A stretch of 64,000 nt of DNA from NCBI RefSeq assembly GCF_036374615.1, contig NZ_DASUTK010000100.1, positions 5,103 to 69,102 on the forward strand, in the 5' to 3' direction. Under the pieces are notes generated by a model. That model saw nothing but the letters and a program-made list of their open reading frames with translations. It was not told the origin of the DNA and ran no database searches. Shown piece after piece: positions 9,930 through 62,296 of the stretch (positions are counted from its first letter, which is position 1; each line of letters begins with the position of its first letter). A program made the position numbers and the translations under genes. The DNA comes from Nocardioides sp. GTDB lineage: Bacteria > Actinomycetota > Actinomycetes > Propionibacteriales > Nocardioidaceae.

Positions 9930-10406
9930 CTAGCCCTTGACCTCCCGCTCGTACGCGGCGCGGTGCGCGAGCCAACGCTCGGCGACACCCTCCATCTCGC
10001 GTCCCACGAACACGAGGAACTCTCGCATCAGGCGCAGTCGACGATAGGTCGGCGACTCGTGATCGAGGTGGTCCAGGGCGTCCTCGAGTGCGGTGATCAT
10101 CGGCCCGTAGAGCTGGTCCTCGCGCAGCATCGCCTGCAGCCACGCGTCGTCGTCGACGACGTAGACGTCGCGTCGCCCGCCGCGCTCCCGCTCGCGGTGG
10201 ACGAAGCCGATCTGCGCCAGGTACCGGACGGCACCCGACACCGATGCGGGACTGACGCCCAGGGCGTCGACCAGCTCCGCGGAGGTCATCCGGCCGTCCT
10301 CGTCCGCGGTCAGCGCGGCGAAGACACGGGAGGGCAGCCGCTGCAGGCCGGCCGCGGTGAGGGCGGCGCCCATCCGCTCGACGTAGCGGGTGGTGGGGTC
10401 CGTCAT
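9930..10406 (-). CDS. MarR/GbsR-family transcriptional regulator
   Basis: MTDPTTRYVERMGAAL...LPSRVFAAL...LGVSPASVSGAVRYL winged HTH; divergent from an ABC exporter. Confidence 0.85.
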   Translation of the reverse strand: MTDPTTRYVERMGAALTAAGLQRLPSRVFAALTADEDGRMTSAELVDALGVSPASVSGAVRYLAQIGFVHRERERGGRRDVYVVDDDAWLQAMLREDQLYGPMITALEDALDHLDHESPTYRRLRLMREFLVFVGREMEGVAERWLAHRAAYEREVKG

Positions 10407-10419
10407 GACTGCAGTATCA

Positions 10420-10438
10420 CAGAATTTAGAAAGTTCTG
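10420..10438. promoter_or_regulatory. AT-rich imperfect palindrome CAGAA-N9-TTCTG; likely operator of the MarR-type regulator
   Basis: cagaatttagaaagttctg lies between the divergent starts at 10406 and 10461. Confidence 0.6.
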
Positions 10439-10460
10439 AAAGTTGTGTACGCTCGTCGTC

Positions 10461-11375
10461 GTGAGTGCACCGATCGAGATCAGGCAACTGGACAAGCGCT
10501 TCGGGGCGACGCAGGCCCTCGACGGCCTGGACCTGACGGTCGACGAGGGGGAGGTCCACGGCTTCCTCGGACCGAACGGCGCCGGCAAGTCGACCACGAT
10601 CCGGGTGCTGCTCGGGTTGCTCCGGAAGGACCGCGGGGAGGTCCTGCTGCTCGACGGCGACCCATGGCGCGACGCCGCCGCCCTGCACCGCCGTCTGGCG
10701 TACGTGCCCGGCGACGTCACGCTCTGGCCGAACCTCACCGGTGGCGAGGTGATCGACCTGCTCGGCCGGCTCCGGGGGGGTGTGGACACCCGACGCCGGG
10801 ACGAGCTGGTCGAGCGGTTCGAGCTCGACCCGACGAAGCGGGCGCGGGGCTACTCCAAGGGGAACCGGCAGAAGGTCGCGCTGGTGGCCGCGCTGGCCTC
10901 CGACGTCGAGCTGCTGCTGCTCGACGAGCCGACGTCGGGCCTCGACCCGCTGATGGAGGCCGTCTTCCAGGACTGCATCGACGAGTTCAAGGAGCGGGGC
11001 CGGACCGTGCTCCTCTCGAGTCACATCCTCGCCGAAGTGGAGCGGCTCTGTGACCGGGTGAGCATCATCCGGGCCGGCCGCACCGTTGAGCGCGGGACGC
11101 TTGCCGAGCTCCGGCACCTGACGCGGACCTCGGTCGCCGCCGAGCTGGCCGGACCCGCCGCTGACCTGGCCTCTCTCGACGGGGTCCACGACCTCGTCGC
11201 CGAAGGGCACCGGGTGCGGTTCGAGGTCGACACCGCAGCCCTCGACGAGGCCGTCGGTGTGCTGCACCGGGCGGGGGTCCGCACCCTGACCGCGACCCCG
11301 CCGACGCTGGAGGAGCTCTTCCTGCGGCACTACGGCGACGAGCTCCCGCAGGCCGTCGAGCCGACGTCGACATGA
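10461..11375 (+). CDS. ABC exporter ATP-binding subunit
   Basis: [31 protein letters not shown] 7 nt after TACGCT. Confidence 0.92.
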
Positions 11376-12943
11376 CCGGGACCGGGGTGCTGGTGCGGGC
11401 GTTCCTGCGACGCGAGCGCTGGCCGTTGCTGTGGTGGGCGCTCGGGGGCACGCTCCTCTACTGGAGCCAGGCGATCAGTGTGAAGGAGCTCTACTCCACG
11501 CAGGCGGAGTTCGACCGGGCCGCGACCATGATGGAGTCGAACCCGGCGCTGATCGCGATGGCCGGACCTGCCCGAGCGCTCAACACCGTCGGCGGGCAGG
11601 TGACGTGGCAGTCGGCCGCGTTCGGGGCGATCGTGGTCGGCCTGATGAGTATGTTCATCGTCGGACGCCACACCCGCGCCGAGGAGGAGAGCGGGCGGGA
11701 CGAGCTGCTCAGGGCGGGCGTGGTCGGCCGCCGGGCGCCGATGACCGCGGCGCTGCTGGTCGCTGCGATCGCGAACACCCTGGTAGGCGGGCTGGTCGCC
11801 GTCAGCCTGATCTCGGTACCGCTCGCGGTCGCCGACTCGGTGGCGCTCGGCGTCGGGCTGACGCTGTGCGGCCTGGTCTTCACGGGGGTCGCGCTGGTGG
11901 CCGCGCAGCTCACGGCCGGCACCCGCACGATGTACGGCCTCACCGGTCTGGTGATCGCGGCGTCGTACGCACTCCGCGCGGTCGGCGACGTGGGCAACGA
12001 GGCTCTGAGCTGGTTGAGCCCGATCGGCTGGTACCAGCAGATGTACGCCTTCTCCGGCCTGCGCTGGTGGCCGGCACTGCTGCTCGCATCAGCGGCGTTC
12101 GTCACCGTTCTGGTCGCCTACGCCGTGTTCGAGCGCCGCGACATCGGAGCGGGCGTCTTCGCGTCGCGGCCCGGACCCGCCCGGGCGCACCCGGCGCTGC
12201 GCAGCTCGTGGTCGCTGGCGTGGCGGCTCCAGCGCGGCGCGGTCATCGGCTGGTCGCTCGGGCTGCTCGCGGCCGGGCTGGCGTACGGCTCGATCGGCAA
12301 CGACGCCGGCGACCTGATGGGCGACAGCGACGCGGCGCGCGAGGTGATGGTGGCCGCTGGCGGCGACCTCGTCGACGGGTTCTTCGCGATGGCGATGACG
12401 ATCCTGGCGCTCCTCGCGTCCGGCTTCGCGATCTCCTCGGCGCTGCGTCCCCGGGGTGAGGAGGACGCCGGCCATGCGGAGGTCGTCCTTGCGACCGCGA
12501 CGTCGCGGACCCGGTGGCTGCTGAGTCAGGTCTGCGTGACGGTAGTCGGCAGTGCGGTAGTGGTCGGCGCAGGCGGCCTGGGGCTCGGCGGCGCCTACGC
12601 CTTGGTGACCGGTGACGCGAGCGAGATCGGCACGTTCATCTGGCAGAGCCTGACCTGGCTGCCGGCGGTGCTGGTGCTGGCCGGGCTGACGCGGTTGTTG
12701 TACGGGCTCGCGCCGCGGCTGGCCACCCTCGGCTGGCTCGGGCTGGCGTACGCCGTGGTCGTGCTCGTGTTCGCGGAGATCCTGCGCTTCCCGGAAAGGC
12801 TGCGATCGCTGTCGCCGTTCGAGCGGTTGGCCTCCGTGCCGGTCGAGTCGTTCGACGTCGGTGCCTTCGCGGCCGTCCTGGGGGCCGCCACGCTGTTGAG
12901 CGCCGGTGGCTGGTTCGCGTTCACGAGGCGCGACGTCGGCTAG
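11372..12943 (+). CDS. ABC-2 type exporter permease (polyether/tetronasin-resistance TnrB3-like family)
   Basis: About 12 TM segments in two repeated halves ([25 protein letters not shown]), LSWLSPIGW; 4-nt overlap with the ATPase gene. Confidence 0.85.
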
Positions 12944-13106
12944 TGTCTCGTGCGTGAGGCCTCTTGATGCTTGGCGTCTTCAAAGTGCGTGCAGCGCAAG
13001 GCGGCGGAGCGCGGGACTACTGGGCGTACTTCGAGCGACGCCAACGCAGCGAAGTGTGTGCTGTGGGGGCGCGAAGCGCCTAGAGGTCTCGCGCACGGGA
13101 CACTAG
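12940..13106 (+). mobile_element. CTAG-bounded 167-bp MITE-like element with long terminal inverted repeats
   Basis: CTAG at both ends; 24-nt arms (12941-12964 and 13082-13105) differ only by G:T pairs; pairing extends to about 52 bp; no ORF. Confidence 0.6.
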
Positions 13107-13115
13107 GTCCCCACC

Positions 13116-14021
13116 ATGTGGGAGCCGGAGCCGCACTGGCATCCGCTGACCGGCGGGACCGGAACGTCGACCGTCGGGGTGTGGCGCGCCGCCCTGGGCG
13201 AGCAGCCGGTGGTCATCAAGCGGCTCGCGCGACCGGCCCGACACGACCCGGCAGAGTTCAGCGACCCCGAGCACTTCGCTTACTGGCGGCGCGAGGCCGA
13301 CGTCCTCTCCACCGGAATCCTTGGGGGCACGTCGGGGTTGCGCGCGGTTCCGGCGGCGGTCGAGGAGGACCCCGACGGCATCACGATCACACGCGAGTGG
13401 GTCGAGGATGCCGCGAGCAGCGGGCTCTTCGTCGCGATGGCTCTGGGCCGGTTCGCCGGCAGCCTCACCGCCCGGCCCCGGTTCCTGGCCCGCCACCAGC
13501 TGCGCGACCGGTTGGCGAGGGTGGAGCGGCGGGGCGGGTGGCCCACCTTGGCCAGGACCGCCATCGCCGATGTCGCAGACCATCTCTGGGAGCGGCGCAC
13601 CGCGTTCCTCGAGAGGGTCGAGTCCCTGCCGCGGGTCGCCCAGCACGGGGACGCGACTCCGGTGAACCTGCCGGGGCGGGTCGCGGACGAGGTGGTCGCG
13701 ATCGACTGGGCGACGCTCGGCGTAGGCCCGGTGGGCAGCGACCTCGGCCAGTACGCGTTGGCCGCTCGCGAGGAGTTCGATCCGCTGCTCGACGCCTACC
13801 TGATGGGTCTCGACCCCGAGGTCGCGGAGTACGACGAGGTGCTGCTCGGGGCCCGGGTCACTGCCGTCTACACCGCCCTCAACCGCGCGGAGTGGGCGCT
13901 GGAGCGCGTGTCGGGCGGCGAGGGCGCCCTGGCCGCCAAGTTCCGACACCCGGCCGTAGCGCCGCACCTGCGGACCCTGCAGCGGCAGTACCCGTTGATC
14001 GAGGCCCTGGTGGAGGGCTGA
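13116..14021 (+). CDS. APH/choline-kinase-like phosphotransferase
   Basis: VVIKRL, Brenner-type QHGDATPVN, AIDWATLG. Confidence 0.75.
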   Translation: MWEPEPHWHPLTGGTGTSTVGVWRAALGEQPVVIKRLARPARHDPAEFSDPEHFAYWRREADVLSTGILGGTSGLRAVPAAVEEDPDGITITREWVEDAASSGLFVAMALGRFAGSLTARPRFLARHQLRDRLARVERRGGWPTLARTAIADVADHLWERRTAFLERVESLPRVAQHGDATPVNLPGRVADEVVAIDWATLGVGPVGSDLGQYALAAREEFDPLLDAYLMGLDPEVAEYDEVLLGARVTAVYTALNRAEWALERVSGGEGALAAKFRHPAVAPHLRTLQRQYPLIEALVEG

Positions 14022-62117: not shown

Positions 62118-62234
62118 CCCACGACCGGTGCCGGGGGCGGGTCGGACCACGAACCGCTCGCCCCGGGGCGGTCACCGCACAGCGGTGGCCGCCCCTCGCG
62201 TACGCCCGGGCGCGAGCACGGTGACCGGAACGGT

Positions 62235-62273
62235 GCGGCGGATCGGTGTCACCCACTGGCACCGATCCGCCGC
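62235..62273. terminator. 14-bp stem hairpin between convergent genes
   Basis: gcggcggatcggtg / caccgatccgccgc. Confidence 0.65.
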
Positions 62274-62296
62274 GCTGTCCCTGCCCGTCCCCGCCT

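Follow-up and report, generated by a model that had tools for sequence, protein, structure and literature searches.

MITEs (miniature inverted-repeat transposable elements) derived from insertion sequences (ISs) of the IS630 family include RUP of Streptococcus pneumoniae, found with IS630-Spn1, the Correia/NEMIS elements of Neisseria and the cyanobacterial Nezha-type elements; they measure 100-200 bp, contain no open reading frame (ORF), and are usually treated, like other MITEs, as symmetric double-stranded passengers of DDE transposases. Here, we examine a 161-nt element at positions 12943-13103 of a 64,000-nt stretch of a Nocardioides sp. draft genome (contig NZ_DASUTK010000100.1; the whole stretch is called the window). 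The element resembles IS630-derived MITEs in its size and lack of an ORF, in having terminal inverted repeat (TIR) arms as in IS630-family ISs, in its duplicated TA and the CTAG preference of IS630, and in its numerous hairpin-capable copies at gene ends. Unlike them, it carries subfamily-specific arms on a foreign, conserved, strand-asymmetric core that is common across genera, its G:T wobbles are conserved, its orientation is biased relative to replication, and most of its host genomes are without a detectable IS630 transposase; we know of no replication-orientation bias in the RUP, Correia/NEMIS or Nezha-type families. The kind of element is thus ordinary, an IS630-type MITE, whereas the strand-specific hairpin and the replication-linked bias are unusual, as is the trio of a one-strand hairpin core, varied arms on the same core and a bias of about 3:1 in two distant genera.

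Other described systems share single features with this element. In REPINs, which occur with RAYT transposases, a fold-back hairpin is likewise the replicative unit, copies are found outside genes, often between convergent ones, and compensatory changes maintain the stem (PMC3116915). The present element has such a compensation-maintained hairpin, but a RAYT gene is lacking (1/201 genomes of the genus), and it differs further in its TA duplication, its arms resembling IS630 TIRs, its length of 161 nt and its conserved apical domain. As in asymmetric palindromes, its two strands fold unequally, and it is less often oriented with the stable hairpin on the lagging-strand template. Palindromes, SbcCD-sensitive ones among them, are classically unstable on that template, and Trinh and Sinden reportedly placed asymmetric palindromes there in 1991, using engineered inserts with measured deletion rates; in contrast to those inserts, the bias described here is a genomic census, known from copy counts alone. 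Finally, integron attC sites, the sso origins of rolling-circle plasmids and the ends of IS200/IS605 elements resemble the element in that the fold of one strand is functional and that their imperfect palindromes keep unpaired or non-Watson-Crick positions, but the element has no integrase, Rep or Y1 enzyme, its motifs are unrelated, and its fork polarity is opposite to that of IS200/IS605.

The element and its one-strand hairpin

The element is mobile; in the window, its insertion point is exactly the TA within the TAG that ends a membrane-protein gene. The closest syntenic relative, genome G024, has the exact empty site, ...CGACTTCGGATAGCGTCCCCACCATG..., in which the orthologue of this gene ends in ATAG with no element after it, while the filled site in the window reads ...CGACGTCGGCTAG[TGTC...ACACTAG]GTCCCCACCATG.... 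The parts of the insertion are as follows.

12941-12942 (+): left TA of the target-site duplication, within the left CTAG; the empty site in G024 has a single ..GGATAGCGTCCCC..
12943-13103 (+): 161 nt that start with G, end with C and are the MITE proper if the duplication is TA, forming one imperfect fold-back hairpin
12943-12965 (+): left arm (GTGTCTCGTGCGTGAGGCCTCT..), the equivalent of a TIR, pairing with 13081-13103
12985-12992 (+): GTGCGTGC, the 5' half of a conserved helix alternating G:C and G:U, pairing with 13054-13061
12993-13053 (+): conserved apical core, common to all subfamilies and genera and including the apical stem-loop
12995-13006 (+): core motif CGCAAGGCGGCG
13040-13051 (+): core motif GCCAACGCAGCG
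13054-13061 (+): GTGTGTGC, the 3' half of the G:U helix and a direct repeat of its 5' half, pairing with 12985-12992
13068-13080 (+): GGCGCGAAGCGCC, part of the right arm, which may fold locally as a GCGAAGC mini-hairpin and does so in minimum-energy folds
13081-13103 (+): right arm (..AGAGGTCTCGCGCACGGGACAC), the equivalent of a TIR, pairing with 12943-12965
13104-13105 (+): right TA of the target-site duplication, within the right CTAG (13103-13106)

A preliminary description of the locus had reported a 52-position pairing with 12 G:T and one A:C, and our recount returns the same numbers: when 12941-12992 is set against 13054-13105 without gaps, 36 positions are Watson-Crick, 12 are G:T (4 G:T and 8 T:G), 1 is A:C and 3 are others, and the 12 wobbles become A:C when read on the reverse strand. 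CTAG stands at both ends (12940-12943 and 13103-13106), giving a feature of 167 bp in total whose arms start with TGT and end with ACA, and the left CTAG supplies a stop codon, as had been stated: TAG at 12941-12943 ends the ORF 11372-12943. The predicted minimum free energy of the element as RNA is -104.3 kcal/mol on the + strand (z -4.7) and -84.0 on the - strand (z -4.1), and thus the pairing exceeds chance; DNA parameters give -52.5 on the + strand and -41.8 on the - strand. The minimum-energy fold of this single sequence consists of the outer ~25 bp and three inner hairpins rather than a continuous long helix, and the possible mini-hairpin of GGCGCGAAGCGCC, a sequence found in most copies of the window's subfamily, would compete with that helix. 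The continuous form is the consensus structure of 29 homologues, and the long helix is convincing only once these are added. Because the G:T pairs break up seeds, an exact-seed repeat search passes over the arms.

The consensus fold, obtained with RNAalifold on a MAFFT alignment of the 29 copies, is a single rod-like hairpin with 54 pairs, and compensatory double changes are seen at 40 of these. Paired cells amount to 92.9% (77.5% in shuffled and 31-46% in slid alignments), and the covariation score is 0.449 (0.166 shuffled, 0.08-0.11 slid). In helix 1, formed by the arms, double changes occur at 17/18 pairs, so that the arm sequence differs between subfamilies while complementarity is kept. 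This outer covariation could merely reflect both ends having been copied from the inverted repeats of one transposon, but that argument cannot account for the covariation that is likewise seen in the middle helix and in the apical core. Helices 3-5 reach 92-99% pairing and carry compensatory changes; columns 69:110, for example, go from G:C to C:G and columns 82:97 from A:U to G:C, and the tandem G.A/A.G of the apical core is swapped for Watson-Crick pairs in some copies.

The hairpin is a property of one strand. The consensus energy is -71.6 kcal/mol on the + strand versus -28.9 for the reverse complement, and the + strand folds more stably in 63/64 and in 108/108 copies. Since the G:U pairs are conserved, the complementary strand folds ~20% worse. 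The helix GUGCGUGC/GUGCGUGC joins the two units of a direct repeat, whose pairing is possible only through G:U and hence on the + strand only; at columns 50:129, 51:128, 54:125 and 55:124, a U:G or G:U wobble is present in 23-27 of the 29 copies. In the model-fitted alignment, which takes in several genera with 92 non-redundant copies, there are 744 G:U versus 50 A:C; in a strand-neutral ungapped register over the outer 30 nt of 172 copies, the excess is 257 versus 124. The strand asymmetry is thus a conserved property of the family and not a product of decay. The covariation, the conserved G:U and the asymmetric consensus fold bear out the earlier proposal of a constraint on the + single strand, and a structured core of ~60 nt, also proposed, corresponds to 12993-13053, which is conserved across subfamilies and genera. 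Strand-specific editing, suggested as an alternative, is unneeded, since the genome itself encodes the G:T positions and different copies conserve them.

Some copies are longer. Those at L295 and L297 (both in genome G142) and, in Streptomyces, L097, L137, L153 and L127 have an extra insert of ~25-40 nt, often a small hairpin, in the right half of the G:U helix or in an arm, and copies within one genome have the same insert.

Family, target sites and partner transposons

A BLAST search of the window's own genome, a 241-contig draft, finds a single copy. Among 37 congeneric genomes, 15 have many copies, and the 24 genomes searched from other families of the order have none. In the 29-copy alignment, the core is conserved, the arms are very variable yet mutually complementary, and the ends read CTAGTG....CACTAG. 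A covariance model (R1) built from this alignment scores the window element at 162.6 bits on the + strand versus 38 bits on the - strand, and it finds the element in 120/201 genomes of the genus. In the window's genome (G000), it also recovers three divergent superfamily members that BLAST misses (54 bits):

C103:9715-9885 (+): divergent copy L082
C67:1375-1548 (+): divergent copy L083, with ends CTAGACGAC...GTCGTCTAG
C158:1858-2032 (-): divergent copy L084

These carry the apical motifs GGCAAGGC...AACGCnGCC together with other arms. The element is therefore single in its genome only superficially: BLAST returns nothing beyond the one copy, but the covariance model finds three more there and hundreds elsewhere.

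Scanning named genomes for a pattern of the two core motifs yields at least 120 loci, and the matches listed include Nocardioides, many Streptomyces, Streptacidiphilus, Frankia, Nocardiopsis, Mangrovactinospora, Marmoricola and metagenome-assembled genomes of Actinomycetota. A Streptomyces copy matches 54 records of Streptomyces-type plasmids, almost all unannotated at that place, and has no match in the phage collection; the window copy matches nothing in the phage and plasmid collections. Near-identical bursts occur inside single genomes (93-100% identity), and in G093, three subfamilies at this level of identity have different arms and the same core. The family is thus modular, with outer transposase-type arms of ~25 bp that differ and an inner hairpin of ~110 nt that is common across genera. 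A search of Rfam 15 gives only a chance match of the element to mir-17 (E 0.42) and nothing in the window at the gathering score, and our literature search found no description of this actinobacterial family. The family is widespread in actinobacteria and apparently undescribed. Its members break draft assemblies, sit on stop codons and inside operons, and are left unannotated by current pipelines.

The target was defined on 72 Streptomyces copies with recognisable ends, 54 of which have TA on both flanks. At these, the next outward bases vary independently (C..G 45, C..A 4, T..G 2, T..A 2), which identifies the duplication as TA and the target as YTAR, mostly CTAG; as CTAG is palindromic, duplication of TA and of CTAG are indistinguishable at CTAG sites themselves. 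According to the listing in PMC2170065 (Tenzen & Ohtsubo 1991), IS630 prefers TA within CTAG. This tetranucleotide is 11-fold under-represented in the window's genome (875 sites versus 9967 expected from base composition), where a confident ORF has its stop at ~19% of the sites. In ~40% of element copies, a gene stop lies inside one of the two CTAGs; the supply of stop codons is a consequence of target choice together with selection against intragenic insertion. Because the element begins with G and ends with C, each insertion turns one C-TA-G into two, and elements thus make their own targets in a CTAG-poor genome, seeding clusters. Abutting MITE pairs and triplets occur (L236, L237), as expected from ends that regenerate CTAG. 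Among other short palindromes in the same genome, TTAA occurs only 45 times, and GATC and TCGA are 3-4-fold over-represented.

A partner with matching ends exists in a congener. In genome G033, locus L304 is an IS630-family IS with a 371-aa ORF (NF033545, 267 bits) and the ends TA-GTGTGTTGAGTCAGAAATTCGC and TA-GTGTCCTGAGTCAGAGATTCGC. Its TA-GTGTCCTGAGTCAG agrees at each of the first 16 nt with the arms of the commonest MITE subfamily (L031, L044, L047 and L104; for example, TAGTGTCCTGAGTCGGAAGTCC), while the window copy has only the terminal TAGTGTC in common with these ends. A second IS630-type IS, of 1258 bp, has ends ~75% like the arms of the GTAGGCCGTCGCAGC (GTAG..) subfamily. All three IS copies inspected in G033 lie exactly between two complete MITEs, an arrangement that, like the MITE pairs and triplets, follows from the regenerated CTAG:

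L233, 3792-5049: IS630-family IS between MITEs
L235, 3570-4827: IS630-family IS between MITEs
L304, 1347-2493: IS630-family IS between MITEs

The element is thus putatively mobilisable by an IS630-family transposase. A MITE arising as a simple deletion derivative of the IS is ruled out, since neither IS630-type IS contains the MITE core. The preliminary description had called the element MITE-like and mobile, which is substantiated by the empty site, the copies in the genus and beyond, and the congener's IS; the transposase with the same ends that it proposed to look for is found in G033, and none was detected in the window's genome. The element is small, non-coding, multi-copy and insertion-polymorphic (161 nt, bursts, an empty site).

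Related and reduced elements are also seen. In G093, where an autonomous element with the ends of the most active subfamily is not found among the MITEs, solo ends and a 59-bp derivative, this derivative (L301, G093:C1:3604833-3604891) is a mini-element with both subfamily ends joined, and its deletion runs between CGTCGCG direct repeats in the two arms, a footprint of slippage across the hairpin. Distant IS630-like transposases are present at L306 (G191:C1:563627-564493 and two more copies) and in G007 (346-aa ORFs); they score at most 63 bits with NF033545, under its cut-off, and their ends, TA-GCTGTACCCGGCCA.., also in CTAG, are unlike the MITE arms of the same genomes.

Orientation relative to replication and its interpretation

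Orientation was examined relative to both genes and replication. With gene context taken from a crude gene caller based on G+C content at third codon positions, copies lie mostly at gene 3' ends (40 convergent versus 14 divergent contexts), and no orientation preference relative to flanking genes is seen: genes stop at the left (sense) end in ~19 copies and at the right (antisense) end in ~25, and tandem contexts are 25 sense versus 36 antisense. Orientation follows replication instead. In six complete Nocardioides-like genomes, with the origin anchored on dnaA, the structured strand is the lagging-strand sequence, and hence the leading-strand template, in 81/105 copies (p = 2e-8). The assignment of polarity is validated by the 61% of genes at the same loci that lie on the leading strand, and the bias is 18:3 beside leading-strand genes and 6:1 beside lagging-strand genes. 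Four linear Streptomyces chromosomes show 108:38 (108/146) in the predicted direction (p = 6e-9). Placement of the structured strand on the leading-strand template in ~75% of copies is not that of a palindrome-associated transposable element (PATE) derived from IS200/IS605, for which Ton-Hoang is said to have described in 2010 a rule that puts it on the lagging-strand template.

We consider it likely that the whole is explained by an IS630/Tc1-mariner-type MITE whose one-strand hairpin acts as single-stranded DNA (ssDNA) at the replication fork. DDE transposases of this type, acting now or formerly, would mobilise the element and insert it at the TA of CTAG/YTAR with duplication of TA; the same presumably holds in genomes that now have no IS630. 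Because orientation follows replication and not genes, we infer that the relevant single strand is DNA at the fork rather than RNA in host mRNAs. Two routes could produce the bias. Copies with the stable strand on the lagging-strand template might soon be lost through hairpin-mediated excision or deletion, either through slippage from one flanking TA/CTAG repeat to the other or through cleavage, and exposure of the weaker-folding strand as lagging-strand template is what would be expected if a stable fold-back there caused loss. This route resembles the instability known from palindromes on the lagging-strand template and fits how asymmetric palindromes classically behave. Alternatively, integration itself may be coupled to the fork and oriented. 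A requirement for the fold-back in propagation would be the most economical reason for the retention of the + hairpin.

Several points weigh against this explanation. The counts take the terminus to lie opposite dnaA and the Streptomyces oriC to be central, and they are made on related copies, which are not independent events. Older Nocardioides copies are more biased than recent ones (36:6 versus 14:8), but the contrast is weak (p = 0.058) and is absent in Streptomyces, which shows 20:6 even among copies with at least 99% identity to a paralogue. Because near-identical copies are already so biased, insertion bias and fast loss cannot be separated on present copies. No lower stability is seen for copies that lie in the "wrong" orientation. 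Double-strand cut-and-paste transposition needs neither a hairpin nor a particular strand, and the link between transposase and fold is unexplained. DDE_3 (IS630-type) transposases are found in 26/201 genomes of the genus and are not enriched among the element-positive ones, and an IS630-type transposase was detected neither in the window's genome nor in the burst-rich G093, G035, G183 and G110; a cognate transposase missing from the same cell fits orphan MITEs and leaves the recent bursts unexplained.

In a less probable reading, the hairpin itself is the transposition substrate or a fork-coupled module. Either a hairpin selected on one strand would ride different IS630-type ends as a hitch-hiking cassette, excised or integrated as ssDNA at the fork, or a host or element protein would recognise the core and move the element in IS630-free genomes.

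That the core is a structured RNA, spread on MITE arms and selected as the + transcript, either as a small RNA gene or as a cis-acting terminator, stabiliser or RNase III site, is unlikely. The G:U pairs, the tandem G.A motif and the compensatory changes are typical of RNA, the predicted RNA hairpin reaches -104 kcal/mol, the elements lie mainly at gene 3' ends, and action as RNA is known from other MITEs, such as ERIC and Correia. However, G:T wobbles stabilise DNA hairpins too, there is no match in Rfam and no conserved promoter, and the indifference to flanking genes described above is accompanied by an orientation that tracks replication even beside lagging-strand genes. On the same grounds, the mobile terminator or stabiliser of the preliminary description, acting as RNA, is not supported, sense and antisense copies being about equal. 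An intrinsic terminator would be a G+C-rich hairpin with a U-tract, oriented with the upstream gene; here, no U-tract follows the hairpin, the sequence after the element being GGTCCCCACC, and co-orientation with genes is lacking among the copies.

An inert, decaying palindrome, with its G:T excess and bias produced by strand-asymmetric mutation or by a skewed KOPS- or Chi-like oligomer in the core, is very improbable. Replication-linked compositional skews do exist in bacteria, and a polar core motif could lead to counter-selection of one orientation. Against this, the same G:U positions recur in copies from different genera and are thus inherited and conserved rather than recurrent, covariation is far above the shuffled and slid controls, and a mutational origin of the bias is unlikely because the G+T-rich + strand is on the lagging strand, opposite to the usual skew.

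Movement of a REPIN- or PATE-like ssDNA element by a Y1 HUH transposase (RAYT or IS200/IS605 TnpA), with CTAG as the cleavage or target tetranucleotide, is hardly tenable and largely refuted: although the hairpin has compensatory changes as in REPINs (PMC3116915), strand asymmetry and replication-linked orientation would suit it, and the empty site also fits insertion 3' of a tetranucleotide, Y1_Tnp (PF01797, covering RAYT and IS200/IS605) occurs in only 1/201 genomes of the genus, the flanks T-TA..TA-A and C-TA..TA-A fit a TA duplication rather than a fixed tetranucleotide, the arms match an IS630 TIR, and the polarity, given above, is reversed.

If the bias of the IS630-type MITE reflects fork-coupled excision, loss or integration, the family would provide a natural test case for hairpin-driven MITE amplification during replication and for palindrome instability shaping mobile DNA, ideas that have long been proposed and are unproven. 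If the hairpin is an ssDNA substrate at the fork, this would amount to replicative amplification of a DDE-type MITE with a built-in orientation rule across Actinomycetota.

Neighbouring genes and other features of the window

The element separates two genes on the same strand:

11372-12943 (+): upstream gene for a 523-aa multi-pass membrane protein, whose stop codon TAG (12941-12943) is the insertion target
13116-14021 (+): downstream gene for an APH-family phosphotransferase (PF01636, E 1.5e-8)

The membrane protein has ~9-11 hydrophobic segments, and its ORF gives no Pfam match. In G024, the phosphotransferase gene begins 10 nt past the upstream stop codon, and hence the element has split a probable two-gene operon. 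Divergent from this pair and upstream of it, 9930-11330 (-) encodes a 466-aa protein with a C-terminal MarR-type helix-turn-helix. Far downstream, at 62227-62281, the window contains a terminator-like hairpin, unrelated to the element, whose 25-nt arms are 84% complementary and enclose a loop of 5 nt.

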